DNA of 51,185 nucleotides from positions 1 through 51,185 of the IMG/VR virus record IMGVR_UViG_3300027747_001067. One strand, given 5' to 3'. Under the pieces are notes generated by a model that was given only the letters and a program-made list of their open reading frames with translations, was not told where the DNA came from and searched no databases. This document shows positions 27,068 to 51,185 of the stretch, piece by piece (within the stretch, counting starts at the first letter, position 1; every line of letters begins with the position of its first letter). The stretch comes from a virus (lineage: Duplodnaviria > Caudoviricetes). The translations under genes and the position numbers were made by a program.

Positions 27068-27069
27068 CC

Positions 27070-28553: not shown

Positions 28554-28556
28554 GCC

Positions 28557-33452: not shown

Positions 33453-34693
33453 TGCCGACTCCCACTTACAAGCCCAACACCAACGGATTCAACTTCGACA
33501 AGAACGCTTTCATGAGCCAACTGTCGGGTATGGGTCTTGGCAATGCCATGCAGAACTTTGGTGGTGGCTACAGCCAGACTCCAAACTATGCCTTGAACAT
33601 TGGCAACTACAACGAACCTGCGACCAAGAGCATTCAAAGCCTGCTGCCCTCTGGCAAGCCTACGTTCCAGCATCAGGGCATGGGCACGTTCCAGCAGCAG
33701 CCCATTCAGGGCCCCAGCGTTCAGCAGATGTGGGGGGGCATGCTGCGTGACCTGAACGTGCGTGACCAGCTTAACCAGCAGAACTTTGCTCGCCAGCAAA
33801 ATGCTGCGGACATGTTTCTGAACAAGTCCACTGCTGCTGCAGAAGCCACCAAGAACGCGGCAACGCCCATGTTTGACAAGGCTTACGCCTTCCAGCAACA
33901 GGGTCAGCAGCAGGCAGCCAAGGATTTTGATCTTTTCCAGAAGCAGTTGGGTGAAGCCGACAAGGCGATGCAGGCCACACAGAACCAGGTGGGCCAGATC
34001 TACAACCAGGCACTTGGCCAAGTTGGCCAGGGCATTGACCGCGTGGCGTCAGATGCTGCTGCTGCTATTGCTCAGCGCAAGGCGTCTGACGTGGATCAGA
34101 TCATGGGCGAGATTGGTGGCTTTGCCGGAACCGAATCTCAGATCCAGGAAGCCGCTCGCCAAAAGGCTTCCGGTTACGACCGTGATCTATTTGGCACCAT
34201 CGCGGGCATTCAGGCCAACGCCGCGCAGCAGCGTGCACAGGTGCTGCAGGGCAAGGCTGGAACCATGGCTTCCCTTGGCTCCTCTCTTGCAGGCATGAAG
34301 CAGAGCTCTGCAAAGATGGGCTTTGACGCAGCCGCCAACAAGAATCAGTGGAACGAGTTTGGTGCCAACATTGCCATGGCTCATGGCAAGCTGCAGCAGG
34401 ACGTTGCAAACAACTATGCCCAGCTGACCAACATGGGCTACGCCAACTACGCCCAGATGATCCAGCAGAACCCCGTGTTGGGTGTAACCATCACCCCCAC
34501 TCTGCTTGCAATGTCTGAGGCTGCTCAGTCTTACGGCAACCAGAACCTGGCTCGAATTAGTCCAACTACTATTAGTGGTGGTGGTGCACCCGGCAGCAAC
34601 TTTACGTACGACTACGGCTTTGGCCAGAGGTTCGTCAACCCAATGGATGTCTTTGGTGGCCCACAGCAGCGCCAAAACGTCAACTTTATCTAA
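33452..34693 (+). CDS. Putative internal virion/DNA ejection protein
   Basis: 413 aa rich in Q/A/G/N, helical, after the tail gene. Confidence 0.6.
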   Translation: MPTPTYKPNTNGFNFDKNAFMSQLSGMGLGNAMQNFGGGYSQTPNYALNIGNYNEPATKSIQSLLPSGKPTFQHQGMGTFQQQPIQGPSVQQMWGGMLRDLNVRDQLNQQNFARQQNAADMFLNKSTAAAEATKNAATPMFDKAYAFQQQGQQQAAKDFDLFQKQLGEADKAMQATQNQVGQIYNQALGQVGQGIDRVASDAAAAIAQRKASDVDQIMGEIGGFAGTESQIQEAARQKASGYDRDLFGTIAGIQANAAQQRAQVLQGKAGTMASLGSSLAGMKQSSAKMGFDAAANKNQWNEFGANIAMAHGKLQQDVANNYAQLTNMGYANYAQMIQQNPVLGVTITPTLLAMSEAAQSYGNQNLARISPTTISGGGAPGSNFTYDYGFGQRFVNPMDVFGGPQQRQNVNFI

Positions 34694-34702
34694 GGACTAG
34701 CC

Positions 34703-36391: not shown

Positions 36392-36400
36392 GCTACCGTC

Positions 36401-36769
36401 ATGTTCAACTGGCGAGTCCTCAGCTCTGACCTGTGCCGCGAGCATGCAGCCGACGGCAAGGCGCGTATTGCCCTGAACCGCTCTTTCGACTTGGAAACCC
36501 GGTACGACCTACCTATCTTCAACCTCACCCCGCTCCCCCTCGTCGTGGGGGGACCCTACTTGCGTGCAAAGCAGGTACGTGCGTGGTTCTGGGAGGTCAG
36601 GCACCTGAGGGCAATGCACCGCCCATGGTCCATGCTGGTGTCAAACTACGATCCAATTGAGCGGGTATCGACTGTCCACATTGGCACTGTTACACTGCCC
36701 GATGTGGTTGAACGATACGCCAGCATGGTGCGTGGCAAGGTTCACCGCTTTGACCCAATGGTGTTCTAA
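36401..36769 (+). CDS. Hypothetical protein
   Basis: 122 aa ORF filling the gap in the late operon. Confidence 0.65.
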   Translation: MFNWRVLSSDLCREHAADGKARIALNRSFDLETRYDLPIFNLTPLPLVVGGPYLRAKQVRAWFWEVRHLRAMHRPWSMLVSNYDPIERVSTVHIGTVTLPDVVERYASMVRGKVHRFDPMVF

Positions 36770-36771
36770 CT

Positions 36772-37497
36772 ATGACTGCACTTCCATGGCTTCTTGAAAA
36801 CGCTTCTTGGCTCATGCCATTGCTTTTGGCCGGTGGTCTTAGCCCAGGTGAAGATGCAAAGAAGTCCCCGGGTCGTTCTGCTGATGCGCTCAAGAGCCAC
36901 TTTGAAAGTTTGAAGAGCAAGCACAGCGGTGATGAGAAAAAGGCTTTGGAAGAGTTTCTCACCACCCATGGCCCCGATCGAATCAAGGCTGCATACGAAC
37001 ACCGTGCGCCTGCTGCAAAGCCGGGCAAGGGCGCTGCAATTAAGGGCGGTCTTAAAGATGCTTTCCACTACGGCACTACTGGCTTGTTTGCACTGGGCAC
37101 TCTTCCCATACTGATGGACATGTTCCGAAGCGGTGGCAAGGAAGGTGGGGCGGCGGAAATGGAGGGCCTGCTGGGAAGTCCCCCCACGGGTGGGGGTGAC
37201 AGTGCGCTGGAGGAGATGCTGATTCAAGCGATGGATCAGGATCGCCGCGGGCAACTGCGTAGCATGGAAGCTGAGTCTCGAGGCGCAGCCAACATGGCAA
37301 ACCGTCGGGGCTTTAGCTCCACGCCTTCTTCCAATGCAGGATTTGCAGACGACCTGGAATCACTGATTCGTGGACACGAGCGTGAACTGGGAAGCATTGC
37401 ACACCAGGAGCCGCTGAGTCTTGCACAGGCTTTTGCAATGAAGGGTTTGTACCGCCCTGAAGAAACCACTCGCTTCGACTTTAGGAACCTGATGTAA
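36772..37497 (+). CDS. Hypothetical protein with hydrophobic segments (possible ejection protein)
   Basis: 241 aa; hydrophobic N-terminus and internal GLFALGTLPILM. Confidence 0.65.
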   Translation: MTALPWLLENASWLMPLLLAGGLSPGEDAKKSPGRSADALKSHFESLKSKHSGDEKKALEEFLTTHGPDRIKAAYEHRAPAAKPGKGAAIKGGLKDAFHYGTTGLFALGTLPILMDMFRSGGKEGGAAEMEGLLGSPPTGGGDSALEEMLIQAMDQDRRGQLRSMEAESRGAANMANRRGFSSTPSSNAGFADDLESLIRGHERELGSIAHQEPLSLAQAFAMKGLYRPEETTRFDFRNLM

Positions 37498-38543
37498 TGG
37501 CAAAGAAGCCCACCCCACGCAAGAAGTCCACGCCAAAGAAGGACCCCGGCCTTGATAAGGCAGCGGCAGAAGTGCCGCTGGGTGGTCCACTTGCCGGCAT
37601 TCCTAGTCCGCCAGAAACTCCGTCTGCACCTGACATGTCGGGCGAAACGCCTAGTCGTGGTGTAAACCAGCAGAAGCTGCTCGAGAAAATTATCAAGCTG
37701 ATTGACACTCCGGGTCTCTCGCCTGAGAACAAAAAGATTCTTTCAGATGCTGCGTCGTTGGTTCAAAACCATGACATTGAGTCTGAAGGAACCAACATCC
37801 TTGATGAGCTTGATGCGCACTTCAAGGACGGTCTTCCGCCTGAAATGAAGCCCAAAGCTGGGGCTCCTGCAGAAACTGCACCAGAAGAAAAGCCTGCGCC
37901 TAAGCCTCGTGGCGGTAAGCCAAGGGGCGGTTCAAAGCCTGCACCAAAGCCGACTATCAAAGACCTTAAGGAAGCCGAAGAGAAGCCTGCTCCCAAGCCT
38001 GAGCCTAAGCCAGCACCTAAGGAAGAACCTAAGGCGGGGCCAGAGCCAACAAAGCCGACGGAACCTGCAGCTCCTCCGATTGCACCAAAGAAGGCTAAGC
38101 CAAAGGGGGAGTTTAACCCGGAACTGTACGTGGGTCGATACCCCAAGGTCGGCGAGAAGTTGAAGCTCCTGCGGGCTGGCAACATCGGTAAGGTTGGACT
38201 AGGCGCACTGGCTGCTTTAATGCTGGCCCGACAGATGAGGCCAGAACAGGATTCGCGGCCAATTGAAGCGCAAATGGAAGAAGCGCGCACGCAGTCTCGA
38301 TCTGCACGGATTGCCAAGGCAATGGAAGATATGCGTATGCAGCGCTCGATTCAGCAGAACCAGATGCGCCTTGCACAAGCTAACCCCACCCTCTACACTT
38401 CTGTCATGGCTGGGCGACGTGTGCCCACCAACTCCGTAGTGTTGGGGGGACGACCCCGTACGGATCTAATGCGAGAACTAGCGGCGTCTATGGACAGTGG
38501 ACGCTACGCCCAGCAAGACCCACTGTCCGATTTGATGGGATAA
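37497..38543 (+). CDS. Pro/Lys-rich hypothetical protein
   Basis: 348 aa with KPAPKP/EPKP repeats and one hydrophobic helix. Confidence 0.7.
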   Translation: MAKKPTPRKKSTPKKDPGLDKAAAEVPLGGPLAGIPSPPETPSAPDMSGETPSRGVNQQKLLEKIIKLIDTPGLSPENKKILSDAASLVQNHDIESEGTNILDELDAHFKDGLPPEMKPKAGAPAETAPEEKPAPKPRGGKPRGGSKPAPKPTIKDLKEAEEKPAPKPEPKPAPKEEPKAGPEPTKPTEPAAPPIAPKKAKPKGEFNPELYVGRYPKVGEKLKLLRAGNIGKVGLGALAALMLARQMRPEQDSRPIEAQMEEARTQSRSARIAKAMEDMRMQRSIQQNQMRLAQANPTLYTSVMAGRRVPTNSVVLGGRPRTDLMRELAASMDSGRYAQQDPLSDLMG

Positions 38544-38547
38544 ACAA

Positions 38548-39288
38548 ATGCCTGGACAAAACCCCGTTGTCGCCGAACACTACAAGGATCAGTTTCAAAC
38601 GATCTCTTTCCCTATTCACGGCAGCACCATTACCCGTGGTGCAATTACTCCGCTGCTCTACGTTGAGAAGCGTCAGATCGTGGTTGACGACGTGCGTCTG
38701 ATTACCCGAGTTGGTGTTGACAGCCTGACTATTGATGTTGGTTTTACCCGTGGCGCAGCTCCAGTTGGTGGCTGGACCGGCACTTACAGTTGCTCGGCTG
38801 CAAATGGTACAACGGTTACTATTGATAGCACTACTAGTGGGTTCCTGACCGTTGGTGACCGACTTGCTACTGTTGCTGGTGCTGCTCTTACCAACATCCC
38901 TGTTGGCGCATACATCCAGTCGTTTGGCACCTACACGGCTGCAGCCGGTACTGGTACTGTCATCATCAGCGATGCTGCTACTAACACTAGCTCTGGTGCA
39001 ACTGGTAATGCGATTGATTTCAACTCGGTGCTTACCGCCCCAATGGCTGCTGCTACGGCAAATGCCAACACCATTGTGGTGGGTGCAATCAACAGCAACC
39101 AGAGCACAGTGCCGACCACGGCTCCCAATAGTTACGCTGTAACGACCCCCAACAACATCGTGCCGGGTCCGGTTACTGTTGGCTCAACGACGACTCTTGG
39201 TGGCGTGCTCAGCATCGAAGCCCGTGGTGCCGCAACTACCAACTACATTGGTACTCTTCAGATCCGTTACCGCGAGCGTCAGGCCTAA
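38548..39288 (+). CDS. Putative virion decoration/fibre protein
   Basis: 246 aa, T/A/G-rich, beta-type; TNIPVGAYIQSF...VIISDAAT motif. Confidence 0.6.
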   Translation: MPGQNPVVAEHYKDQFQTISFPIHGSTITRGAITPLLYVEKRQIVVDDVRLITRVGVDSLTIDVGFTRGAAPVGGWTGTYSCSAANGTTVTIDSTTSGFLTVGDRLATVAGAALTNIPVGAYIQSFGTYTAAAGTGTVIISDAATNTSSGATGNAIDFNSVLTAPMAAATANANTIVVGAINSNQSTVPTTAPNSYAVTTPNNIVPGPVTVGSTTTLGGVLSIEARGAATTNYIGTLQIRYRERQA

Positions 39289-39291
39289 GCC

Positions 39292-39339
39292 ATGAAGAAG
39301 AAAGGCCCCAAGAAGGGCGGTTGCGGTTGCGGCCGCTGA
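39292..39339 (+). CDS. Candidate 15-aa basic micro-protein
   Basis: MKKKGPKKGGCGCGR; TAAGCCATG context shared with other late genes. Confidence 0.4.
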   Translation: MKKKGPKKGGCGCGR

Positions 39340-39358
39340 GGTAAGATCCCCCGGAACG

Positions 39359-39394
39359 GGCCCCGGATGACGCGAAAGCTCTCCGGGGCCTTTT
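39359..39394 (+). terminator. Intrinsic terminator
   Basis: GGCCCCGGA...GCGAAAGC...TCCGGGGCC followed by TTTT. Confidence 0.7.
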
Positions 39395-39397
39395 CAT

Positions 39398-42300
39398 ATG
39401 ATCCAGAACCAGATCAAAACAGATGAAGAAGGTTTCCCAGATTGGGAGCCTGTTTCATTTTATGACGCCCCCGCCACGATCATTACGCAGATCTACGACG
39501 GCGAGGGATCTCTGGGTCGTGCAGCCCGCACGCTTCTTGACCAGTCCTCGCTCAGTCCCAAGGAGCGTGACTCCTACGTCCAGCGCATCAAGAAGTCCCA
39601 TGGTGGCAATCCGGTCCTTGATACTGTTATTGATATTGCCATGAACCCGCTGACGTGGTTGCTTGTTCTTACCAACCCAGTCACTGCAAAACAGTTCCGT
39701 AATGCCAAAGGCAAAATGTTGGGTGGCGTTTCAGAGATGGGCAAGGTTGGTCGCAAGATTGTGGACGCCCTGCGCGGTGTGCATGCCCTTGGATCTGCGT
39801 TCATGAACGAACACGCAGTCACGTCGCAGGCAATCAACCACTTAGCATCCCGTCAGCAGCAGATCATGGAAACGCTGCAGGAACTGGGGGGTAAGTCGCG
39901 TGGCAAAATGCTTCAGAATCTCACGGAGACCTTGGGCGAAGAGGTGTGGGACTTTGACCACACCCGTTACTCAGGAGAGAAGAAGCGCAAGATCTCCCTG
40001 CTAAACAAGATGCTGGCCGTGGATACCGGCGGGTTCTTCCGAGATGATGCGTTGATGAAGCACCAGCTGGCGGACCTGCCACGCATTGCCGTGGTGTCCG
40101 GCCCAGAAGGCGAGTACGCCCGCATTCTCCCACCACTACCAAAAGGAGAAGGTGAACGGGTTTACATCAAGGGTGCCAAGCTAACACTTGATGGCCAGTT
40201 GCACACGCTGGTTGATCGTCCGCTTGTTGTCAACAGCGAAGAGACTTACGCCCAAGGCAAGCGTCTGCTGGGACGCGACTTTGATTACTTGACGGTAGAG
40301 GAAGTTCCGATCTTGAACTCGTCCCGTCTTCCCATTACCCGCGAAGAGGGCATGAAGCTTCTTGCGGACGAGGGCTTTGACGTGGCTACGGTCAAGGAGT
40401 ACATGGGCGCTGTACGGAAGCAGCAGCGGCACCTGGCTGCTCTTGGCCTTGGACCTACGGTTGCAGGCACTCCTCTTTCTACAGAGGGCTACTTCAACGT
40501 GGACCCGAACAAGGTGCTGCATTCAATCCAGTATTTCAAGGAAGAGCAGGGATTCCGAAATAATTTCAGTGCTGCTGAACAGGAAGCGTTCCATGACATG
40601 GTGGGCACCCTGACGGAAAACATCCTTCCTGACTGGGTTGAGGCGGCTGTTGCCAAGAACACCATTACCAAGACTCGAGTCAATGATCTGATCAAGCGGT
40701 TGTACGAGCCGCAGTTGAACAACCCCCATTACTACCCCCGTAGTCTGGCCAACCAGTGGATGCGAGACCAGAACTTGGCAATGCGTGTGGAACCATACGA
40801 CGTGGCCCGTATGAACACCCGTAACCCAGAGGACAACCTGAAGGTCCGCTCTGCTGCACTGCTGCGTGAACGGCCCGACGTGATGCTGGACCATGGAGAC
40901 TTGGCTGAGTTGCGTGAGATGTTTGGTGACCGGCTGACCGACAAGCAGCACATGATGTGGGACAACCTGATCGAGCGCACCGACAATTTTGTCGCTGAGC
41001 AGATCAGCAAGAACAAGGTGGCTTCCACTCTGCCGTTGGACTTTGAACGGGCCGGCCGTGCGTACGAACAGAAGATGATTGGTCAAGCCATGATGTATGG
41101 CGATGACGTACCAGAACACCTGCTCCAGTCGCTGGAAGAAGTCAAGAAGATTCCTACTCGTGTAGCTAATGAGGAAGACCGCACAAAACTTCCACTCGGT
41201 ACCCCCACAAAGTACCGAGCACAGACACTCAAGAACTTGGGCATCACCGAGAAGACCATGGAAAGCATCTCGTTTGGTGATGCTTCCTACCCCACGCGTT
41301 TGAAGTACAGCTACGCGGCCCGTCAGTGGCGTGAGGAATTGGATCTTGTCTACGGGCAAATGCACAAGACAACCGACCCATTGAAGTTGGAAACTCTTGA
41401 GCGGCGTCGCAAGGCAATCAGCGAGGAACTGGACTTCATCTCCCAGTACCGCATGCCATTCGCTTCCACCCAACAGCCCCGTTCAATGGGTGAGTTCCTA
41501 CGTGTGCTGATGCCACGTGAGAACAAGGAAACCCGGGAACTGGTGGACGGTTTCATCCTACCCCGACTGTTTGGTGGGGCCCAAGGCAAGCACGCTGTAG
41601 CCATGACTGCATTGCAGGCATCGCGTGCCACCATGCAGAAGTTTGTGAACAGTTCGCTGGGCAAGATGCTCCGCGATAGTGGGGGGACACTGGGTCGTAA
41701 TATGTTTGAGGGGGCTCAGGCTTTTGCGGAACGACCTGTCTACATTCAGGACGCAGCCAACTTAAGCCGTAACGCTGCCGGTTACCTGTACTCAACGCAC
41801 TTGTCATCCATCATGACGGGCATGTACAACGCATTCCAGCCGTTTACCTGGGGTGCTGCTTGGGTGGGCGTGCCGGAGGTGATGAAGGCGTACCCCAAGG
41901 TGCTGAAGCAGATGGCGAATTACGAGCGTGAGCGCGTTCGATACGGCATCATCATGGACCCGCAACAGAAACGCGATTTGTTCCGCAAGCACGTCCCGCT
42001 GGCCAATTACCATGGCCGTGATTTGACCATGCTCAATGAAGACTTCCTGTCCACACTAGACAGTGCGATCTTCTCGGGTCGCGTGCAGCGCAAGTCGGGC
42101 ATGCTGAAAACTATCTTCATGGACATGCCACTGAAGTTCTTCCAGAAGATTGAAACAATGAACCGCATCGTCATGGCAGAAGCGGGCTTGTCGTTCTACG
42201 AGAAGCAGCTGGCAGCCAACGGCATGCGTATGGCTCCCATGGAGATTGCAGACAACGTGCAGACGTTGCAGTCCATGGCCAACTTTGCACCCCAGGCCAC

Positions 42301-43333
42301 AACCAAACCTCGAATCCTTTCCGACCCTAACACGGGCGCAGGATTCTTGGCTAACCCAACCATGGGCATGTTGCTGCAGTACCCCCTTCGCTTTGCAACA
42401 AACATCGCCACCTCAGGAATGGTGTTCGGAGGCAAGCGCAGCATCGGCTTGCAGAAGTTCGGCGGACCCGAGTTGTTTGAAGTGCCTGCTCAGGTTGCCG
42501 ACATTGGTCGCGTGCTGGGCATCAGTGCAATCATGTATGAGGTGGGCAAGAACCTCATGGGTCTTGACCTCTCTCCCGGCTTGGGCGCTCAGTCAGCGAT
42601 GGGTCTTGCAGATACTGCCACTCGCGGATGGTTGCCGGTACCTGTGGACATTGCAGTCAACTTGACCAAGGGTCTGCTGGATGACGATAAGGACTCAATG
42701 CGTCGTCAGGTGTTCCGTCTGTTGCCTGCTGGTATCCCACTGTCAAAGGCGTTGGGTGCACTGCCGTCCATGGACAACACTCCAGTGGGCATGCTGCAGT
42801 CGCAGTACGCCGACTGGAAGAACCCTAACCAACAGGGCCTGATTCCCGTCTACAAGGACGACGGAACGCTGCAGTCGTTTGAGTCCCCGCTGGCACTAGT
42901 ACTCAAGGGCGTGGGCTTTGACCCGCGCAAGTACCAGTCCCCCCAAGAGGCGACCAAGTTCCTGCTGTCCAACCGCCAGCAGATTGTGGACATGAAGCGT
43001 CAGTACAAGGACGCGGTGCTAGGTAACAATATGGCCCAGGCATCCAAGATCGAAGAGGAATACAAGACGCGGTTTGGCGTAAGCATGACGGTCAAGCCAG
43101 ACGAGTGGGACTCTGCCATCAAGTTGCGCGAAGTGTCGGTCAGCGAGCGCATGGTGGACTCGATGCCAGCTGATGTGCGTGGTGTCTACCAGCAATCGCT
43201 AGGGGGGCCAATGGGACAGGCCATGGGCTTGCCAGATGGCGGGCTTTACATGGGGGATGCTGCCAAGCAGCGTGACGCTATCCGTCAGTTCTCGTCTGGA
43301 TTATCCAATCCGTCATCCGACGAAGGCAGCTGA
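39398..43333 (+). CDS. Large putative internal virion/ejection protein
   Basis: 1311 aa, last late gene; helical C-terminal half resembles podovirus large ejection proteins; no catalytic motif recognised. Confidence 0.7.
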   Translation: MIQNQIKTDEEGFPDWEPVSFYDAPATIITQIYDGEGSLGRAARTLLDQSSLSPKERDSYVQRIKKSHGGNPVLDTVIDIAMNPLTWLLVLTNPVTAKQFRNAKGKMLGGVSEMGKVGRKIVDALRGVHALGSAFMNEHAVTSQAINHLASRQQQIMETLQELGGKSRGKMLQNLTETLGEEVWDFDHTRYSGEKKRKISLLNKMLAVDTGGFFRDDALMKHQLADLPRIAVVSGPEGEYARILPPLPKGEGERVYIKGAKLTLDGQLHTLVDRPLVVNSEETYAQGKRLLGRDFDYLTVEEVPILNSSRLPITREEGMKLLADEGFDVATVKEYMGAVRKQQRHLAALGLGPTVAGTPLSTEGYFNVDPNKVLHSIQYFKEEQGFRNNFSAAEQEAFHDMVGTLTENILPDWVEAAVAKNTITKTRVNDLIKRLYEPQLNNPHYYPRSLANQWMRDQNLAMRVEPYDVARMNTRNPEDNLKVRSAALLRERPDVMLDHGDLAELREMFGDRLTDKQHMMWDNLIERTDNFVAEQISKNKVASTLPLDFERAGRAYEQKMIGQAMMYGDDVPEHLLQSLEEVKKIPTRVANEEDRTKLPLGTPTKYRAQTLKNLGITEKTMESISFGDASYPTRLKYSYAARQWREELDLVYGQMHKTTDPLKLETLERRRKAISEELDFISQYRMPFASTQQPRSMGEFLRVLMPRENKETRELVDGFILPRLFGGAQGKHAVAMTALQASRATMQKFVNSSLGKMLRDSGGTLGRNMFEGAQAFAERPVYIQDAANLSRNAAGYLYSTHLSSIMTGMYNAFQPFTWGAAWVGVPEVMKAYPKVLKQMANYERERVRYGIIMDPQQKRDLFRKHVPLANYHGRDLTMLNEDFLSTLDSAIFSGRVQRKSGMLKTIFMDMPLKFFQKIETMNRIVMAEAGLSFYEKQLAANGMRMAPMEIADNVQTLQSMANFAPQATTKPRILSDPNTGAGFLANPTMGMLLQYPLRFATNIATSGMVFGGKRSIGLQKFGGPELFEVPAQVADIGRVLGISAIMYEVGKNLMGLDLSPGLGAQSAMGLADTATRGWLPVPVDIAVNLTKGLLDDDKDSMRRQVFRLLPAGIPLSKALGALPSMDNTPVGMLQSQYADWKNPNQQGLIPVYKDDGTLQSFESPLALVLKGVGFDPRKYQSPQEATKFLLSNRQQIVDMKRQYKDAVLGNNMAQASKIEEEYKTRFGVSMTVKPDEWDSAIKLREVSVSERMVDSMPADVRGVYQQSLGGPMGQAMGLPDGGLYMGDAAKQRDAIRQFSSGLSNPSSDEGS

Positions 43334-43728
43334 TGGTTGTCCCACTTACCCATGGTGTAAGCCACAACTTCTTCTGCGGTAAGCCGTTCCATCCAGTGCA
43401 TAAACGATGAGCCACGGTCTGGCTCGTCGGGCTGTTCTTCCCGCCACCTGCGATACAGCATGAACGTGGCTGAGATGACCAACCCTGCCTCTTCTACGCG
43501 CATGGTGTGCACGGCCTCGAGCACACGAATGCGCTCTGAGAACCGATTGACCATCCGCTCGAGCATGTCGGCGTGAGCTTGCAGCTCGCCCTTCTTTTCA
43601 GATGGACGGGCTGGGGTCCGAGGACCTCCATTGACCCTATGCCGGTAGCCACGCATTGCCTTAGAGTCTAACGGCTGGATAACGGTCTGCGAGATGGGGC
43701 TGTTGATTTCGATGTTGATTTGGGTCAT
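43285..43728 (-). CDS. Hypothetical protein
   Basis: ATG at 43728 with ATGA overlap; converges on the large late gene with 49 nt overlap. Confidence 0.65.
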   Translation of the reverse strand: MTQINIEINSPISQTVIQPLDSKAMRGYRHRVNGGPRTPARPSEKKGELQAHADMLERMVNRFSERIRVLEAVHTMRVEEAGLVISATFMLYRRWREEQPDEPDRGSSFMHWMERLTAEEVVAYTMGKWDNHQLPSSDDGLDNPDEN

Positions 43729-44339
43729 ATACGATACCAAAACTGGAACTTGGTCCCGTCGTCTGTAGCCCTCGCGGACCACCTGACGGCTCGGGGGGTG
43801 AGCCTTTGACCCGACCCAAGGATGCCGTCCATGGCATCCCGGATCGGGCCAGGTACTTGGAAGGTAGCGACTCGCCAGCTACCACCTTCCAAGAATGCTG
43901 TGAAGTCTAGGCTGTCCGCCAGCCGCACCACGTTGCCCCGTACGGGCTCCGACTTATCCAGCCACCCTTCTAACGTCTCCTTGGAGGGGGCTCCGTGGAG
44001 GGCCGCCCAGGACGCCAGGAGCCATCGGGTGTGTCCCCCCAGCGGATGGGGGGTCTCCCACAGGTCGAGGGCACAGCGGCTGCGGTAGAGCCCGCGGCGG
44101 GGGGACAGGGTGATGGGGGGCAGGGGGCAGGCTTTGGAACCCCGAATGGTGGTCCAGAACCGGACGGATCTAGGGTTCTTGGCGTCAGGGCGGATGTGTT
44201 GAATGTGGGCCATGCCGTTTCCAGCATGGACCCACTTGCAAAAGGAAGCCCCCTGGACACCGGTCAGGTAATCCAGGGGGCGATCGTGGGGGGACGATTG
44301 TTCGCCATGGTAGTGACTGCTTCCCACAGGGCAAGTCAT
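43725..44339 (-). CDS. Hypothetical protein
   Basis: 204 aa ORF directly after the SSB-like gene. Confidence 0.6.
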   Translation of the reverse strand: MTCPVGSSHYHGEQSSPHDRPLDYLTGVQGASFCKWVHAGNGMAHIQHIRPDAKNPRSVRFWTTIRGSKACPLPPITLSPRRGLYRSRCALDLWETPHPLGGHTRWLLASWAALHGAPSKETLEGWLDKSEPVRGNVVRLADSLDFTAFLEGGSWRVATFQVPGPIRDAMDGILGSGQRLTPRAVRWSARATDDGTKFQFWYRI

Positions 44340-44349
44340 GGCGTTGGAA

Positions 44350-44874
44350 TCAAGACAGCGACAGCGGGGCGACCAAGAACTCCTTGAAGTACTTGGTGCC
44401 GGGCTTGGCCTTGCTCTCGTCGTAACGCGCGCGGAGCTTGACCGGAATCACGTTGCCGTTGTTGATGCGCTCCTGCACGGTCTGCATAGCCATCTGCAGA
44501 TTCTCAGGACGACGGCCGATCAGGGTGGTGAGGTGACCCTTGATGCGCTCCAGTTCGATGCGAGCGCGGGTCTTGGCACCCTCGTCGGTCAACTGGGTGG
44601 GGTCAGCGGGCATCTGGAAGCGGGCACCCGTAAAGCTGCGAGGCTCGGGGCTGCCCGGATCTTCGACCATCTGGTACTGAAACGTGATGTCGATGGACGG
44701 GAACAACTGGCCGTCCTTCTGCTTGAACTCTCCTTCCTCGATGGTCATGCCCGTGACGAGCACGGCGTGGTCACCGGCATCGGGACGCCAGCCTGCGCCG
44801 GAGCCCTCGGTGTTGGCCTCGACCGAGGCGAAGGAGTTGTTGTACGCAGCGAACATGGTGGACTTGATAGTCAT
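44350..44874 (-). CDS. Putative ssDNA-binding protein
   Basis: 174 aa OB-like pattern (WRPDAGDHAVLVTGMTIEEG...IPVKLRARYDES...KYFKEF), downstream of the Sak4-like ATPase. Confidence 0.6.
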   Translation of the reverse strand: MTIKSTMFAAYNNSFASVEANTEGSGAGWRPDAGDHAVLVTGMTIEEGEFKQKDGQLFPSIDITFQYQMVEDPGSPEPRSFTGARFQMPADPTQLTDEGAKTRARIELERIKGHLTTLIGRRPENLQMAMQTVQERINNGNVIPVKLRARYDESKAKPGTKYFKEFLVAPLSLS

Positions 44875-44983
44875 GACAGTAAACCTTTCGTGAAAGGAGA
44901 TGAAAATGGAAATGAGACACGGAACGAAATCAACGAAACAATCAACACGTTATACGGACTTGTCGATTGAGTAATCGGGAGGC

Positions 44984-45014
44984 GGGGGTGGGACACCGTC
45001 GAGGGCCCACCCCC
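44984..45014. promoter_or_regulatory. Intergenic stem-loop upstream of the SSB-like gene
   Basis: GGGGGTGGG / CCCACCCCC inverted repeat. Confidence 0.55.
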
Positions 45015-45028
45015 AGCCCTTCCGGGGG

Positions 45029-45934
45029 TCAGGGAGTGTTGGCGGTCTTGTAGGCTTCTTCGAACAAGCCCCAAGGGTCAACTGCACTGGTCACGTCGAT
45101 GTCCTGCATCGGCTTGAGAGTGCGAGTACGGATGAGTCGCAGGTAGCGCGGGTCACGGAACGAGATGGTACGCGTGATCGTCTGCTTGGTAACAGTACGG
45201 TTCTGCGTAACCTGCTTCCCGGCCACGGTAACAACTGTTGGTTCCACGGTGGAGACTTCGCGCACTTCCGAGCGCATGGGTGCAATGATCTCTACCACCT
45301 TGGACAGTCGCTCCCGCAGGCCGGGAGGCAGGGACAGGTAGTGCTCCTCTACCTTGGATCCTTCGCCGATCTCCACCCAGTCGCGGGACAGGTGGGCGAG
45401 CAGCCAAACGCCGTAACCATGTGAGCGCAGACGGTGAGCCACATCAATCACCGTGTCGTACAGACGCTCCCACGCTGCAGGACCGTGTGCCTGCTCAAAG
45501 AGTTCCTTGCCCATCTGCCGTGCAACCCACGGCTTGAGCAGACGGATCATCGGGATCATGGTGTCAATGACGACCATTGAGGGGCGCTCGTCTCCGTTCT
45601 TAGCCATATCACATAACTGCTTGATCTTGGCTTCGACGTGGTCCCAGGTAATGATGAGCGGCTTTCCGTCGACGTCCATTGGACGACCATCAAGACCAAT
45701 GCCGGGCCACACTGCACACTTGGCGTGGGGGGACACGGTGCTGGACAGATCGAGGTTGATGACAAAGGCGTCGGGGCAGGACTGGAACAAGTAGGACTTG
45801 CCAGAGTTTTGCTCACCCACGACCATGCCGAAAAGATTACGGAGCGAATAGAGACCAGGTCCACCCTGGAATCCTAGCCCCTTATATGCCCGAACGGGGC
45901 CATTGCCTGCTGCTGTTGTCTGATGAATGCTCAT
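45029..45934 (-). CDS. Sak4/AAA_24-like P-loop ATPase (recombination)
   Basis: Walker A GEQNSGKS, VINLD, Walker B VVIDT, WLLAH; between exonuclease and SSB. Confidence 0.75.
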   Translation of the reverse strand: MSIHQTTAAGNGPVRAYKGLGFQGGPGLYSLRNLFGMVVGEQNSGKSYLFQSCPDAFVINLDLSSTVSPHAKCAVWPGIGLDGRPMDVDGKPLIITWDHVEAKIKQLCDMAKNGDERPSMVVIDTMIPMIRLLKPWVARQMGKELFEQAHGPAAWERLYDTVIDVAHRLRSHGYGVWLLAHLSRDWVEIGEGSKVEEHYLSLPPGLRERLSKVVEIIAPMRSEVREVSTVEPTVVTVAGKQVTQNRTVTKQTITRTISFRDPRYLRLIRTRTLKPMQDIDVTSAVDPWGLFEEAYKTANTP

Positions 45935-46344
45935 TGGAATTCTCCTGATTGACGTGCGAGTTCACCGAAGGCGTCACCGAATCCCCGCGACGGGCGGAAA
46001 TCAAAAGTTTTTTCGTTGTCAAACTTGACATCCTCCTCCCCCGCATCCGGGCGGGGGCCGGCCCCCCCGCCCGGGGCGGGGACTGGACTCAAACCTTCAA
46101 TATGAACTGTCTTGCGGAACGAGATGCCTAGTGCTTCCAACCACGTGCTGAACGTGGAGAAAGACACCGTGCTTCCGGTTGCCTTCTTGAATGCTGCGTG
46201 CAGCGTGGACTTGTTGGTGATCTCAGTCTCGCTGCGAAGCAGGCCCGCAAGGTAGGGGCGCACAACTTCGGTGAGAATCTGAGTCATCAAACTTCCAAAC
46301 TCGCTGCGTTGCAGCTTGCCTTCTGGGTAGGGATCACTGGACAT
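45931..46344 (-). CDS. Hypothetical protein, possible HTH/winged helix
   Basis: AAGGAG before ATG at 46344; LHAAFKKATGSTVSFSTFSTWLEALGISF. Confidence 0.65.
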   Translation of the reverse strand: MSSDPYPEGKLQRSEFGSLMTQILTEVVRPYLAGLLRSETEITNKSTLHAAFKKATGSTVSFSTFSTWLEALGISFRKTVHIEGLSPVPAPGGGAGPRPDAGEEDVKFDNEKTFDFRPSRGFGDAFGELARQSGEFQ

Positions 46345-47596
46345 TTGCTGTCTCCTTTGGTGCGTCTCGATCAACGATGACAAAACCTTCTTGCATCACG
46401 ATGTCTGGCCACTCCGAAACAGGACGCAAGACAAACGGTGCGTATGTGTCGAGTGTACCAGTACCATGAACTTCTGTGGGCCACGGATACTCATGCGGTT
46501 CAATCTCTGCAATGCGCCACTTGTTGAGAGCGGCGAGGCGCGCACGATACTGACCTACCCACTGTTTGTCTAGTAGGGCAGTACCCGAAGTGAAAGATAA
46601 ATCCACAAGAGGTTCAGCCACCCGCTCTGCCTTGAGGTGCACATAGTCCTTCTCACCCATGTACCACTGGCGGCAGCGCTCAATGTAGTTCTCTAGCCGG
46701 GGCTCCCCTGTGTACACTTTCTCATTGCGAGGCTCGCCCTTGCGGGGTCCACTCTTGAATGGCGTGGTGTCCAGGATGTAGTCCCTATCGGACTGGCCGA
46801 AGGAGATGGTGGGCTTACGCACAATGGCGTGAAGCATGCCCCCCACGGTGGTGTCATCGGGCAGATCGAACTGCTTCTGCAACTGGCCACGCTGCAACAG
46901 ATCGTGGGCGATGCTCATGTAGTGCTGGGTCTGTGGCTCAATTGGGCACGAGGCTCCACGGATGCGAGGGCTGATGCCCGTGGTCTTGTAGTCCACGATC
47001 CACAAGGAGCGCTGTGGCTTGTGGAACAGCAGCAAGTCAGGCTGCATAACACAGGTCACAGGGTCCATGCGCTTGTCGTCCAGTGTCAGGTCTGTACGCA
47101 GCAGGCACTCGTTGCACAGGGGGACAAAGTCAGGCCCGCTTAAGAACTCGTGCATGCTACGACCATTGGCAAGGGACCCCTCGATGGGCAGGTCCTTGGA
47201 CACGAGGGACCAGGCCCACCCGCAAGTGGCGTCCTGCTCTTCGACGGCAACGATCTCACGCGTGCGTTGGTCCCCAATGGACAGCTCCTTGCATACGCTA
47301 CGCATCTCGTCAATGCGTGCCTCAAGCTTGGCCTGGTATTGGATGTGGGCTGACTCCACGGTGTTGCTGGGGTTCATCAGCAACTCGAGGGCCGCGTGGA
47401 ACCACGTGCCCTGCGAGAGGGCCACGCTGTAGCGCAGCGCTGGGACGAGGCCCAGCTTGCGAGTGAGGTAGTAGTGGAATGGGGATCCGAGCGAACGGAA
47501 GTCGGATGATCGGACGGGGGGACGACGCTCAACCAGACCGTGCTGGGCGAGCAGATCACGCGACCCCACTGGGGTCGACCGGAACTCAGGTGGCAT
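46334..47596 (-). CDS. PD-(D/E)XK exonuclease (RecB/Cas4-like)
   Basis: ALSQGTWFHAALE, QPDLL, WIVDYKTT and QTQHY motifs; AGGAG RBS. Confidence 0.85.
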   Translation of the reverse strand: MPPEFRSTPVGSRDLLAQHGLVERRPPVRSSDFRSLGSPFHYYLTRKLGLVPALRYSVALSQGTWFHAALELLMNPSNTVESAHIQYQAKLEARIDEMRSVCKELSIGDQRTREIVAVEEQDATCGWAWSLVSKDLPIEGSLANGRSMHEFLSGPDFVPLCNECLLRTDLTLDDKRMDPVTCVMQPDLLLFHKPQRSLWIVDYKTTGISPRIRGASCPIEPQTQHYMSIAHDLLQRGQLQKQFDLPDDTTVGGMLHAIVRKPTISFGQSDRDYILDTTPFKSGPRKGEPRNEKVYTGEPRLENYIERCRQWYMGEKDYVHLKAERVAEPLVDLSFTSGTALLDKQWVGQYRARLAALNKWRIAEIEPHEYPWPTEVHGTGTLDTYAPFVLRPVSEWPDIVMQEGFVIVDRDAPKETANVQ

Positions 47597-47608
47597 ATTG
47601 TTCTCCTG

Positions 47609-48988
47609 TTAGGTGGTAGTAAGTAAGTTTAGTTCAGTTTGCGTCTTAGTCACTGGCCAGTACTTGACCTGTGCAAAAGTCATGCACGGCATATAATTTC
47701 CGTAACTTGTTGTTGGAAGCCTGCCCAACACAAACTTCGTTGAGGCATACAGGTCTCCAGTTCCTGCCCTGTTGATAGTTCCAACTGTTCCACCATTCAA
47801 AACTGCAGCAACGATTGGATCGCTAGTTGTGTTAACGCTGCAAGCATAACGTGTTTGTGCGTTGAGGGTGTACCCTCTATACACTTCATTTGGACCACCA
47901 GAACTCAAACTTGGTCCGCGCGCTGCAACGCCAATATTGGTAGAGTTTGTGAACACTTCAAATGTTGGTCGTGGACTAGGGCTGTTACTGTCCATAAACC
48001 CGACGATCTCTGTGTAAGCACCGGGTGTTTGCTTGTGAATGATGCCGCTCCAGTAAAGCGTACCGTTGGTGGTGCTCACTTGGAAAGGAGAAGCATCAGC
48101 AATGAAACACTGGTCAGCTGCTCGTGTCACAGCAGCAGTAGTTGTTGGGATGTACGAGGATGCTCCGTTGCCTGCTTCAAGTTGCGCGCCCCAAACGTAA
48201 ATGCCGCTTCCAGTAGTCCCTGCATATGAGGTTGTGGTTCCGTCTGTAGACAGCCTCATTTGACAGTTTGCGCTTGTTTGTCCAGCAGCGGTTGTAAATC
48301 GCATTTCAATCCGATACCACCCGGTTGTTCCGATTGCTGTAACCCTTGTGTTACCGGCGACTGATTCGCTAACAATGTTTCCGTTTGACAGGTTTACCAT
48401 GTTAGTCGCGCTGCTTCCACCGTTTTCATACAGCTGGACAAATGTTCGTTCGACTGCTTTTGCCCAAACGCTGAAGGTATATGCCGTTGAAGCAGAGGCA
48501 GTAGGCACACTTAATGTTGCATGCACTCCGTTTGTAGTTGTTTCTTCAACTTTGACAACTGTTCCGCTTGATCCAGTTGGGTTGGTGGTTGTGACTGTTC
48601 CTCTTGTCGTATTCACTGCTGAGAAGTTCCAGTTCACTGCGCCGCCAGTAGTTTGAAATGACTCACTCCAGTTCAACAGGTTCGTTGCGCTTCCCTCAAT
48701 TAGCAGCCCTCGAGGGGCTAGCGTGGTCGGGTTGTAGTCAAAGCGTGGCACACCAGCAGCAACACTTTGCACATAACCACTGCTGTTGATAAAGGTGGCT
48801 GTTCCAACTGCACCTGAAGTGGTTGAAGAACTTCTATCAAAGGTGAAGCGCGAATCCAGAGATGACATCTGGGTAAAGTCAAGGGTGAGCGTGGACCCGT
48901 CGCTTGCTTCGAGTGCGGGGTAGATGCGGTTACGCTGATCGCGTGTGCCGAAGGCGTCAAGAGAAGACGCGCGTGTTCTGTTCATCAC
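47609..48988 (-). CDS. Virion spike/fibre-like carbohydrate-binding protein
   Basis: LDF..., ATFINSSG, PRFDYNP...RGLLIEGSATNLL, YTFSVWAK, GWYRI, WGAQLEAG..ASSYIPTTTAAVTRAAD: recurrent phage spike/fibre signature. Confidence 0.75.
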   Translation of the reverse strand: MMNRTRASSLDAFGTRDQRNRIYPALEASDGSTLTLDFTQMSSLDSRFTFDRSSSTTSGAVGTATFINSSGYVQSVAAGVPRFDYNPTTLAPRGLLIEGSATNLLNWSESFQTTGGAVNWNFSAVNTTRGTVTTTNPTGSSGTVVKVEETTTNGVHATLSVPTASASTAYTFSVWAKAVERTFVQLYENGGSSATNMVNLSNGNIVSESVAGNTRVTAIGTTGWYRIEMRFTTAAGQTSANCQMRLSTDGTTTSYAGTTGSGIYVWGAQLEAGNGASSYIPTTTAAVTRAADQCFIADASPFQVSTTNGTLYWSGIIHKQTPGAYTEIVGFMDSNSPSPRPTFEVFTNSTNIGVAARGPSLSSGGPNEVYRGYTLNAQTRYACSVNTTSDPIVAAVLNGGTVGTINRAGTGDLYASTKFVLGRLPTTSYGNYMPCMTFAQVKYWPVTKTQTELNLLTTT

Positions 48989-49503
48989 ATCTCCCCAACG
49001 TGGGCGTTCACCTTAGTGCCAGCAGTGGCAACAAAGTTCAACTCAACCAGTTCAAAACCCTGGGAGTCAACGACAAAGTAAGCGTCCGTGTTGCCCGTGG
49101 AAGGTGCAAACAGTTTGGCATCACCCGCACCCTTGGTCAGGGTTGCTGCGGCCAGAAGTTCCGTGCCGTTGAGGGTGAGACCGGTGCTTGCAGAACGAAG
49201 GCTAGCCATGGTGACTTCGGCAATCAGGTGGGGGATCCAGTAGCGGGTATCGCTGCATAGGGCCCAGCCAATTACACGGATAGTGGGAGTAGCAGCAGAA
49301 GCCCAAGGGTGAATCTTCATGTAGTTCGAAGTGGAACCAAAGACGATTGAGCCACGAGTTGCCGTAGTAGTGCTCACGTCAGTTGCGGGCCGGGTCGTAG
49401 TGGGGTTACGAACCTGCGCGGTTGCTGCGGTAGTGACATCCGTACTACTCTTGTTGCCAAGATAGGTGTTGCGGACGATGGTGTTGAGCATCACGTGTGG
49501 CAT
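48985..49503 (-). CDS. Beta-rich, Thr-rich putative structural protein
   Basis: 172 aa, translationally coupled to the spike-like gene. Confidence 0.6.
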   Translation of the reverse strand: MPHVMLNTIVRNTYLGNKSSTDVTTAATAQVRNPTTTRPATDVSTTTATRGSIVFGSTSNYMKIHPWASAATPTIRVIGWALCSDTRYWIPHLIAEVTMASLRSASTGLTLNGTELLAAATLTKGAGDAKLFAPSTGNTDAYFVVDSQGFELVELNFVATAGTKVNAHVGEM

Positions 49504-50045
49504 GGTGGTTCCTCAGAGGGGGTGATAGTGGGGAGTATAGGGCACAGTGCCGCGTTGACCAAGAGGCGTACTGCCCACTCGGCCACGGCACGGCGTGCAC
49601 TCATGCTGGTGTTCGGTAAGAGAATCAGACCAATGTTTCTTTCAAGCAAGATGCGATGCAGGGCGTCGATCGCATTCCAGGGATCAGGCAGATCCTTGGT
49701 GGGGTTCATGGTGTCGAGCAGGTTCCCTTCGAGCAGGAGGTAGGGGTAGAAGCAGGCTTCTTTGAGTCGGTCCATTGCCGCTGTGAATTTGCGGCGACCG
49801 TCGGCGGTCAAGCAGTTCCCTGCCACCTCGGCTAGTGAACCCTTCCGCTCGATTAGACAGGCGACTTCGTACCCCTTGAGTGCGTAGTCCCCGGTGACGA
49901 GCGTGACCTTCTCGGTCTTGAGGCGGTGGGTTCGTGAACTCCGGGAGAGAGCAGGCAGGTCCGACCGAAGCGACGGAAGGTGCTCCGGAAAGGGCAGCGG
50001 CTTCTTCTCCCTAGAGTCCACGAGGATCGTGAGTTCGTTGTTCAC
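49491..50045 (-). CDS. ERCC4/XPF-type nuclease
   Basis: ILVDSREKKP, TGDY, LIERKGSLAE and YLLLEG motifs. Confidence 0.85.
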   Translation of the reverse strand: MNNELTILVDSREKKPLPFPEHLPSLRSDLPALSRSSRTHRLKTEKVTLVTGDYALKGYEVACLIERKGSLAEVAGNCLTADGRRKFTAAMDRLKEACFYPYLLLEGNLLDTMNPTKDLPDPWNAIDALHRILLERNIGLILLPNTSMSARRAVAEWAVRLLVNAALCPILPTITPSEEPPCHT

Positions 50046-50054
50046 CCCCGTAGC

Positions 50055-51185
50055 CTAGCTGAAGTCGTACTCCAAGGGAACTGTGTTGCCGTAGTGGGAC
50101 TGGAGCTTGGCCCAGTACCCGGTGTCACGGACCTCCTCAATGTGGGACTTGATCTTGGACTTGAGGGTGTCGAGGTCCACGGAGGGGTGGACGTCGAGGT
50201 AGACCGCGTCATAGATCTGGAGGAACATCTTGACGTGGGGGGACAGGAGGGGGGCGATGGCTCGCTGGATTGCGAGGAGGGTGTTGCCGGCCTGGGTCTG
50301 GATAGGGAAGTTGACGATCTCGTTGAGGTGCTCGTCGCTTCCCCCCACGAAGGTGCGGGACTGGCCGGTAAAGGGAAGGACAAGGTGGCCGTCGATGTCG
50401 GCGCGTCGGAGAAGGGAATGCTGCCAGGCATGGAGGCCGGGGCGGGCGTCGGGTCGGGTCTCGGCTACCTGCTCGAAGAAGGACAGGGGCATGAGCTGGC
50501 CGGTCATCTCGTGTACTGACATCCGCATGCGGAAGGGGGAGGCAAGGAAGAGGTCGGCGAAGTTCATGGTCTTGCCCACTTGACGTTCAAGTTTCTTGAA
50601 GGTTTGTGAAGTAAGGCAGGTCTTGCCGAAGAGTTGGACGGCTCGGTCTGTGTGCAGGTCGAGTCCATTGTTGAAGGCGTCAAGGAGAGACCTGTCGCCA
50701 GAGCACAGGGCAGCTACGCGAAGCTCGATCTGCGAGAGGTCGAGAGACAGGATCGTGCCACCATGGAAGCGGGACTTGATGCAGGCTTTGATCTCAGGCG
50801 GGAAGGTCTGGGCCGAGGGACTCTTGCAGGTGATGCGGCCCTGAATGGTGCCACCTTCGGAACCCGAGTTGTCCTTCGATGCGGATGGCACGGGATACCA
50901 GACTGGGAAGGCGAGCCCGTCAGCCTCGCCGGGGTATGGGAGCGGGAGAACGGTGGACGACTTGTCTTCGGGCTTGTTGCGCTTGCCCTCGAGCAGGGGC
51001 CAGATGTAAGTGGAGAGCATCTTCTGTGCGCGCTGATGAGCGGCTGCAGCTGTGAGTACGGCGATCTCCTTGGTGTCAGTGTCGAGGAGGAAGCCACGGA
51101 TCAGGTTGCGGTTGGCGTCAGAGAATGAGAAGGCCCGGGTCTTCTCGGTGAACTGGGCAAGGGGGTGGGAGAGGACGTCGATGTT
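50055..51185 (-). CDS. polA: Family A DNA polymerase, C-terminal polymerase domain
   Basis: GTIQGRITCKSPSAQT, motif A LDLSQIELRVAA, DLHT, motif B RQVGKTMNF, NFPIQ, motif C QIYDA; frame open up to 51185. Confidence 0.92.
   Translation of the reverse strand, partial: NIDVLSHPLAQFTEKTRAFSFSDANRNLIRGFLLDTDTKEIAVLTAAAAHQRAQKMLSTYIWPLLEGKRNKPEDKSSTVLPLPYPGEADGLAFPVWYPVPSASKDNSGSEGGTIQGRITCKSPSAQTFPPEIKACIKSRFHGGTILSLDLSQIELRVAALCSGDRSLLDAFNNGLDLHTDRAVQLFGKTCLTSQTFKKLERQVGKTMNFADLFLASPFRMRMSVHEMTGQLMPLSFFEQVAETRPDARPGLHAWQHSLLRRADIDGHLVLPFTGQSRTFVGGSDEHLNEIVNFPIQTQAGNTLLAIQRAIAPLLSPHVKMFLQIYDAVYLDVHPSVDLDTLKSKIKSHIEEVRDTGYWAKLQSHYGNTVPLEYDFS

Follow-up and report, generated by a model that had tools for sequence, protein, structure and literature searches.

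The A-family DNA polymerase CCPol of the SCCmec element, working with its partner protein MP, shows that an A-family active site can prime DNA synthesis, and in the accessible part of the report (PMC7581432), CCPol alone is described as primer dependent, with priming needing MP. This partner is an OB-fold protein whose gene stands between those of the polymerase and the helicase within one operon (PMC7581432; PMC10061031, in the sections available), and it binds the remnant of the deleted exonuclease domain of CCPol (PMC7581432; PMC10201439, likewise in part). Additionally, the association between a proofreading family-A polymerase and a uracil-DNA glycosylase (UDG) of family 4 is known from the SPO1/SP-10-type and unclassified UDG-PolAs (PMC10201439, available portion), and the P4 alpha and poxvirus D5-type primase-helicases (PHROGs 6088, 1156, 1829 and 864) combine an N-terminal primase half with a D5_N region and a superfamily 3 (SF3) helicase core. 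Here we describe the polA gene of an uncultured freshwater phage (Duplodnaviria; Caudoviricetes), carried by the IMG/VR record IMGVR_UViG_3300027747_001067, whose whole stretch of 51,185 bases is called the window below. An initial annotation had proposed that this PolA, or else an unannotated ORF, may prime the DNA on the CCPol model, given the deviant motifs B and C and the lack of a visible primase. In our analysis, it is probably an ordinary primer-dependent replicative proofreading PolA of a new subfamily, judging from its sequence and that of its relatives, with the primers coming from outside the polymerase.

The window shares with CCPol-MP the presence of an A-family polymerase together with a helicase devoid of a primase domain, and both elements also contain an OB-fold protein that binds single-stranded DNA (ssDNA). 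However, CCPol has lost most of its exonuclease, whereas the N-terminal half of the window PolA is complete (288 aa) with its three exonuclease motifs intact, and the MP gene is part of an operon, whereas the OB-fold gene is here distant, the neighbours of polA being the gene of an ERCC4 nuclease and open reading frames (ORFs) of 58 and 109 aa. CCPol is no close relative of the window polymerase either. The defining features of CCPol are absent, save for the trivial one of a protein resembling an ssDNA-binding protein (SSB) elsewhere in the genome, and nothing specific in the gene or its neighbourhood points to a CCPol-like way of working. The SPO1/SP-10-type and unclassified UDG-PolAs share with the window the association of polymerase and UDG, and SP-10 also lacks the Glu of motif C, where it reads HDS; in those enzymes, nonetheless, the UDG is fused and motif C has His, whereas in the window the UDG-like gene is separate, motif C has Tyr and the family of the polymerase falls in a clade of its own in a quick tree. 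With the P4 alpha and D5-type proteins, the window helicase has the D5_N region and the SF3 core in common, but neither it nor any of its close relatives has the N-terminal primase half, a stretch of about 350 profile positions.

The split polA gene and its conserved signature

The record, classed as 'linear' by its source, counts as a whole virus with a CheckV completeness of 100%, and the window is a full, circularly permuted genome (about 51 kb), with minus-strand genes at 1-11399 and 43285-51185 and plus-strand genes in between. The two minus-strand ORFs at its ends, 864..1 and 51185..50055, are the halves of one polA gene cut by the record ends: the first encodes 288 aa and has no stop within the record, and the second translates to 376 aa and is open at its 5' end, with no start within the record. 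In a relative with 94% identity (L003), a single uninterrupted PolA ORF reads through ECVQKLALRNIDVLSHP, the ORF is likewise continuous in the other aligned relatives, and a contig of sequencing run X10 joins window position 5 directly to the codons for ASRNIDVLSH. At the junction, the window has KLS followed by NID, two residues shorter than the KLALRNID or KLASRNID of relatives, which may reflect either a genuine indel or a trimming of the record ends. Because of this split, the initial annotation, made on the 5'-open ORF, covered the C-terminal half with the polymerase domain only, and the full protein has about 665 aa. The N-terminal half (1..864, minus strand) matches the phrog_17 DNA polymerase profile at positions 670-860 (2.2e-13) and contains DIET (835-846), NLPFD (535-549) and YAAQD (304-318), which we take to be the ExoI, ExoII and ExoIII motifs of a functional 3'-5' proofreading exonuclease domain; all three are kept in a 40-sequence consensus of the family.

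In the C-terminal half (50055..51185, minus strand), motif A (50718-50741) reads DLSQIELR, motif B (50538-50585) RQVGKTMNFADLFLAS and motif C (50202-50219) QIYDAV; retranslation returned the same strings as the initial annotation had given, and in a HMMER alignment they match the corresponding stretches of Taq polymerase (1taq), namely DYSQIELR, RRAAKTINFGVLYGMS and LQVHDELVLE. This half scores 80 bits against Pfam DNA_pol_A (PF00476, cut-off 34.3), with its best HMMER matches to Taq and Klenow chains at an E-value of 6e-13. Compared with Taq, both catalytic Asp residues are retained (D149 and D326), as had been noted before, and so are four residues of motif B, its Arg, Lys, Asn and Phe. What differs is one residue of motif B, where Phe replaces the Tyr at position B4 (as numbered in PMC10201439), and two of motif C, with Tyr for His and Ala for Glu, so that Y-D-A takes the place of the His-Asp-Glu that includes the third carboxylate. 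D149, D326, R201 and K205, numbered in the C-terminal half, show no variation across the 40-sequence alignment. Set against Taq, motif B is only mildly deviant, since its Arg, Lys, Asn and Phe are kept and Tyr to Phe is its sole change. In Klenow, the motif C Glu (E883) belongs to the catalytic carboxylates (catalytic triad), and our literature searches retrieved no mutational data for it. The Phe that aligns with the Taq Tyr at B4 (F213) corresponds to the Phe that is common to both DpoZ clusters in the accessible part of PMC10201439.

These motifs are shared by a whole family of phage polymerases. In 23 related viral loci at 43-96% PolA identity, motif C is Q[I/V]YDA in all 21 loci where it is readable, the other two being fragments, in one of which (L024) it is still visible in the alignment, and the three motifs are invariant or almost so among the relatives aligned over this range of identity. 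A HMMER scan of 1.84 billion cluster representatives (clusters at 50% identity) recovered 8677 family representatives at E<=1e-3, of which 396 reached E<=1e-30, and residues were tallied over the best 150 of these plus the query. Throughout these 151 aligned rows, the motif A Asp, the motif C Asp and the motif B Lys are found 151 times each, while B3 is Phe in 146 and Leu in 5, B4 is F in 87, Y in 46 and N in 18, the first position of motif C is Y in 132, H in 11 and F in 8, and its third position is A in 122, S in 27, and C and E in one each. The signature of the subfamily reads R-Q-x-G-K-x-x-N-F-x-D-L-[F/Y/N] for motif B and [N/Q]-[V/I]-Y-D-[A/S] for motif C. Given that the motifs are nearly invariant in relatives and that the same positions are constrained in the 151 rows, they are not due to chance, and on these alignments the supposedly deviant motifs form a conserved signature shared by a large and as yet uncultured subfamily of phage PolA.

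A quick maximum-likelihood tree of 58 rows, made up of every third family representative of 550-830 aa, the loci and cultured PolAs, separates the family (49 rows) from four cultured PolAs and five loci of metagenome-assembled genomes (MAGs), with a support of 99 in the Shimodaira-Hasegawa-like approximate likelihood ratio test (SH-aLRT) from this quick search. Identity to the PolAs of cultured phages is only 23-28%, with none nearer than 28% in a tblastn search of a 50,697-record collection. In the four cultured PolAs that we examined from the top of 773 tblastn records, motif C contains HDS in SP-10, HDA in KarBoss, HDS in CRP-3 and HDE in Mgbh1, the Glu being missing in three of the four, and in CRP-3, genes annotated as a DNA primase and a DNA helicase sit just upstream of the polymerase gene. 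The MAG loci L036-L043 (25-31% identity) have V-Y-D-E-L in motif C and Phe at B4, and the available portion of PMC10201439 mentions unclassified UDG-PolAs outside its 19 clusters. By this comparison, each motif change has a precedent, at least one of them beside a conventional primase, and the Glu of motif C is not strictly defining for family A, because SP-10, KarBoss and CRP-3 also lack it.

Inteins were found within two of the ten long family members examined, and together with the strong constraint on the motifs, they suggest that the subfamily polymerase is an essential, active replicase. Both are LAGLIDADG inteins located inside the polymerase domain (P0046 and P0085), and that of P0046 follows immediately on the invariant motif B Lys. 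A different insertion, some 90 to 150 residues long and with a high content of Ser, Thr and Pro, is present between PLLxGxRN and AYPVW in the PolAs of L016 (9143-11518) and L018 (4286-6823), and the window PolA is without it.

The family-4 UDG-like protein (1367..2122, minus strand; PF03167, 8.1e-16) is encoded by a gene separate from polA, with two small ORFs between them, and a UDG domain is fused to the PolA N-terminus in four of the same ten long family members. Because of these fusions in relatives, the UDG-like protein is probably an accessory subunit of the polymerase, and inteins and UDG fusions taken together fit an essential replicase with a UDG partner. In the alignment with T. maritima UDG (5.5e-12), the four Cys residues and the HP motif are kept, and Met stands at the Glu of GEGPG. 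This Glu is catalytic in UDG, and with Met in its place the protein may be catalytically inactive. A complex prediction for the PolA and UDG-like protein of L003 scored 0.36 against 0.00 for the best control, which is weak support: the mark applied is reached by 51 of 78 solved complexes and by 2 of 108 mismatched pairs, but at scores of 0.60 or below, it is reached by 5 of the 78 solved complexes only, and all 4 passing mismatches of 180 fall there. The runs agreed on at least 33% of contacts, and the partner had a predicted local distance difference test score (pLDDT) of at least 74.

The helicase, the search for a primase and a one-strand 9-mer

The helicase (10002..11399, minus strand) is a stand-alone protein of the D5_N plus SF3 type (DUF5906/Pox_D5) with its Walker A GGKGT at residue 211. 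Its Pfam matches are DUF5906 (4.5e-9) and Pox_D5 (1.3e-4), and the initial annotation was right that it starts at a D5_N-like region without a primase domain: the profile phrog_6088 'DNA primase' aligns from helicase residue 33 and only over its C-terminal half (positions 354-750 of 772), and of five 'DNA primase' PHROG profiles, the helicase covers nothing but the C-terminal half. PF08706 is annotated on helicase relatives at 42-44% identity. The 71 relatives collected at E<=1e-10, in a search limited to lengths of 255-814, are mostly stand-alone proteins of 460-490 aa, with primase-type domains (PriCT_2 or Prim-Pol) in P0219 and P0220 only (34% and 29% identity), and in the distant L021 (45% PolA identity), the helicase is a 466-aa ORF heading its operon. 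Since the relatives, L021 included, are mostly stand-alone, the primase-less form is by this comparison an old one and not a recent truncation.

No family of archaeo-eukaryotic primases (AEP) or TOPRIM primases was matched in the 40 window ORFs scanned with Pfam or the 50 scanned with PHROGs, the ORFs outside both scans being all shorter than 80 aa. Six-frame scans of the window with PF09250 (Prim-Pol), PF13362 (Toprim_3), PF08275 (DNAG_N), PF01896 (DNA_primase_S) and PF13155 (Toprim_2) gave 0 matches at E<=10 each; one with phrog_6088 gave nothing besides the helicase; and phmmer searches with four longer helicase relatives (P0216, P0217, P0219 and P0220) against six-frame ORFs, both from the window and from the clade loci, matched only helicase halves. 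In the relatives, the scanned ORFs (ten of L021 and nine of L032, L033 and L034) contained no primase. The earlier statement that there is no AEP or TOPRIM primase elsewhere in the genome stands at the level of these profile searches, whose power is low: most window ORFs match nothing in Pfam or PHROGs, with no Pfam match in 9 of 10 large plus-strand ORFs from one scan and no PHROG match in 20 of 30 ORFs.

To these profile searches, we can add the structure models of two ORFs, neither of which matched a primase. The first is the clade-wide ORF 44350..44874 (minus strand; 174 aa), adjoining the AAA_24 gene, whose model (pLDDT 79.8) has only OB-fold ssDNA-binding proteins as its top Foldseek rows, with PrgE (E 1e-3, probability 0.99-1.0), RPA and bacterial SSBs among them; a PDB sequence search with it gave no matches, and from its model it looks like a phage SSB-like protein. 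The second, the conserved ORF 43725..44339 (minus strand), with 33-35% identity in L016 and L018, had been named in the initial annotation as a possible primase. Its model is confident (pLDDT 79, predicted template modelling score 0.76), but nothing about it indicates a primase: the best Foldseek match has E 1e-2 and TM 0.1, with fluorescent proteins and serpins at TM 0.1-0.18 among the rows, and the best VIA-align match is the FliM middle domain (Z 5.7, root-mean-square deviation 3.3 A over 113 residues), with no primase among the 50 VIA-align rows listed. Modelled in this way, the protein shows no convincing match to any known fold and no recognisable resemblance to a primase, so that its nomination gains nothing from the model, although it may still have a primase fold. 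Deeper homologue searches with both ORFs gave close relatives only (8 and 18 proteins), none of them named. Two other identities were considered for 43725..44339 and rejected, namely an HNH endonuclease (PtuB), from a stretch at E 0.2 with all PDB sequence matches at E>=0.16, which was not relied on, and a 'phage tail protein', from an ESM Atlas cluster at 0.92 whose 114 shared features are within the chance range.

The other feature that the initial annotation had brought into play is a 9-mer, GTGGGGGGA, which is strongly over-represented and conserved in the clade. It is present in 22 copies against 0.73 expected, with a maximum of 3 in 100 shuffles, and 18 of these lie on the plus strand (with starts at 337, 2106, 3530, 3783, 5356, 7348, 12872, 15906, 18081, 21416, 29318, 30300, 32878, 36545, 41679, 44286, 45725 and 50235) and 4 on the minus strand (19230, 29874, 37179 and 50340), a split (binomial p=0.0043) that holds whatever the gene orientation, with all sites together spanning 337..50348. 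The copies occur in each of the three reading frames, in sense as well as antisense relative to genes, two of them being intergenic, and the motif is sharply defined, as its 27 one-mismatch variants together account for 23 occurrences. GTGGGGGGA is also the top or a near-top 9-mer in the related loci, and the same strand bias is seen in 21 of 23 loci with 2 ties (163 versus 49 copies), many of these loci being close relatives and not independent; it is 0 versus 9 in the distant L021 and 2 versus 8 in L015 (GC 0.48), and the 9-mer is kept down to 43-45% PolA identity and over a GC range of 0.48-0.60. In a sister lineage with a YDA-type PolA (L032, contig C235 of bin G005), another G-rich 9-mer, GGGAGGGGT, is found instead, with 28 of its 52 copies in the bin on the 34-kb phage contig, 22 of them on one strand and in the same orientation relative to PolA.

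The closest described counterpart is the 9-base motif TACTRTGMC of phage tf, with 14 copies in a 46-kb genome, on the top strand only and across convergent transcription units, each of them a nick (PMC3517423, in the part available). As in that phage, GTGGGGGGA is a 9-base motif of predominantly one strand in both gene orientations, with near-cognate sites rare. In phages tf, T5 and phiKMV, localised strand-specific nicks are established, whereas here they would be putative, 4 copies are on the other strand and no nickase was identified; literature searches on the 9-mer itself found nothing relevant. We also counted GTGGGGGGA in the five MAGs that hold related contigs and found 14-43 copies per 1.8-4.1 Mb, with 29 of the 36 copies of bin G001 on three short phage-like contigs. 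The location of the 9-mers on phage-like contigs and not in the rest of the MAG argues weakly against a host Chi site, as the bins may not be the hosts. GTGGGGGGA may mark nick, Chi-like or protein-binding sites, and, as a speculation from analogy, putative nicks there would give 3'-OH ends to a strand-displacing polymerase.

Where the primers may come from

In the explanation that we favour as probable, the window PolA would act as a primer-dependent replicase together with the separate family-4 UDG-like subunit, the stand-alone D5-type SF3 helicase and the OB-fold SSB. Its primers would be supplied by a host primase or host transcripts, by an unrecognised phage protein, or as 3'-OH ends, the latter being produced either by the recombination module (AAA_24 ATPase, SSB, PD-(D/E)XK nuclease and ERCC4 nuclease) or by strand-specific nicks at GTGGGGGGA. 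If this is true, the mechanism is ordinary, yet it belongs to a large PolA subfamily, of 396 clusters, without a cultured or biochemically studied member, where the third carboxylate of motif C would be dispensable across the whole lineage. The conserved lack of a recognisable primase, together with the strand-biased 9-mer, turns the way in which these phages start their DNA chains into a testable question. Several points weigh against this explanation. Primer dependence is deduced from family membership and not from the biochemistry of any subfamily member, and the chemistry could be changed by the loss of the motif C Glu together with the replacement of His by Tyr. That no primase was seen across the clade is the very pattern expected of a primase-independent or polymerase-primed system, the profile searches are low-powered in a genome where most ORFs are matchless, the structure models cover two ORFans only, and the predicted complex of PolA with its UDG-like partner is weak.

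The alternatives differ first of all in where they place the priming activity. A phage primase could be present but unrecognised, as a divergent AEP or TOPRIM protein or as a new fold among the unannotated ORFs, and the large share of ORFs without any match, the conserved ORFans of the replication modules (6747..7292, 6187..6792 and 45931..46383) and the small number of modelled structures all leave room for it; we regard it as unlikely, though the least so of the alternatives, given that the clade-wide unannotated proteins are all small (150 aa, and 174 aa for the one now seen as SSB-like), that the large ORFs 11439..12851 and 13272..16199 are low-complexity, highly charged and non-enzymatic-looking on reading, and that the N-terminal regions of P0216, P0217, P0219 and P0220 matched nothing in the window or the clade loci. 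Far less probable is the self-priming put forward in the initial annotation, whereby PolA, on its own or aided by a small partner like the OB-fold protein 44350..44874, would make primers de novo in the manner of CCPol-MP, possibly at GTGGGGGGA, and would need no primase. The undetected primase in the window and in the scanned ORFs of relatives, the clade-wide helicase without a primase domain, an OB-fold SSB-like protein in the conserved core and a sharply defined one-strand 9-mer would all suit such a system, and the CCPol-MP precedent (PMC7581432, accessible part) lends it an enzymatic basis. However, that same precedent depends on MP, which binds what is left of a truncated exonuclease domain, whereas the exonuclease domain is here full length with its three motifs, no MP-like gene adjoins polA, and the OB-fold gene lies some 5 kb off, next to AAA_24, where a recombination SSB is usually found. 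The motif variants, moreover, mark the whole subfamily of 396 representatives, and a Glu-less motif C is also found in cultured phages, among them CRP-3, with its annotated primase next to PolA. A recognition site of 9 bases is also unusually long for a primase. What the initial annotation observed, that is to say the motifs, the primase-less helicase and the lack of a recognisable primase, remains valid, the excess of GTGGGGGGA is real, and the proposal of self-priming gains nothing from the evidence.

A different kind of explanation leaves priming aside and takes the motif changes to adapt nucleotide selectivity to a modified base, the UDG-like partner having an editing role of the kind suggested for the SPO1/SP-10-type UDG-PolAs. 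DpoZ (2-aminoadenine) phages carry companion genes for Z synthesis, including PurZ, and none of these is among the Pfam matches of the 40 window ORFs scanned, which include all ORFs of at least 300 aa except the terminase; nor was any nucleotide-modification enzyme recognised in the 40 ORFs scanned with Pfam or the 50 with PHROGs. With B4 varying in the family between F, Y and N, no single fixed substrate is suggested, and the catalytic Glu of GEGPG is Met in the UDG-like protein. The presence of this partner, its fusion to PolA in relatives and the many SPO1-like phages among the nearest cultured PolAs in tblastn speak for base selectivity, as do, in the available sections of Czernecki et al. 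2023 (PMC10201439), the Phe at B4 shared by both DpoZ clusters and the proposed link of the UDG domain to 5-hydroxymethyluracil (5hmU); on balance, we hold this explanation to be distinctly improbable. We are just as doubtful of a bolder scenario, in which a deep clade of abundant freshwater phages would dispense with a dedicated primase altogether, nicks or polymerase-mediated initiation at GTGGGGGGA would give the 3' ends, the Glu-less PolA would extend them with its UDG-like subunit, SF3 helicase and SSB, and sister lineages would use other motifs, for example GGGAGGGGT, in the same way.

Other genes and surroundings

The replication core kept down to 43-45% PolA identity consists of the helicase, the UDG-like protein, PolA, the ERCC4-type nuclease (49491..50045, minus strand), which in all the relatives examined comes immediately downstream of PolA, the PD-(D/E)XK nuclease (46334..47596, minus strand), the AAA_24 ATPase (45029..45934, minus strand), which we assume to be RecA/Sak4-like, and the SSB-like protein; both the AAA_24 and the PD-(D/E)XK assignments come from Pfam. 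Within this replication module, a tail-protein gene (phrog_5939, 1.1e-58) and a Thr-rich ORF occupy 47609-49503 on the minus strand, and the codon-position GC of this segment (0.47/0.57/0.45) is atypical for the window genome. Further genes of the minus strand include a MoxR/CobS-like AAA ATPase (4498..5520; Pfam and PHROG) and a VWA protein (2384..4747), whose true start is probably downstream of 4747, given the overlap of its ORF with the MoxR gene. For the N-terminal part of this VWA protein, the ESM Atlas gave a weak lead to CobT (0.94, with 165 features shared) that fits the neighbouring CobS-like MoxR ATPase. In L016 and L018, the MoxR/VWA pair (2384-5520 in the window) is found elsewhere in the genome, next to the homologue of 43725..44339.

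Between the helicase and the terminase, the plus strand carries the two large ORFs 11439..12851 and 13272..16199 (11439-16199; 470 and 975 aa), low-complexity, highly charged and without a family match, which may be internal virion or scaffold-like proteins. The GC skew of the plus strand is +0.19 to +0.26 over 1-8000, despite the minus-strand genes there, and -0.29 over the helicase gene at 10-12 kb. Contigs of runs X2, X3 and X10, from three studies labelled freshwater or lake water and in addition to the run that may be the source, cover window positions 1-8000; the presence of the phage or its close relatives in these three studies makes it an environmentally relevant lineage. With a summed contig depth of 277-1257 in X3, the lineage seems to be common, with much strain variation.

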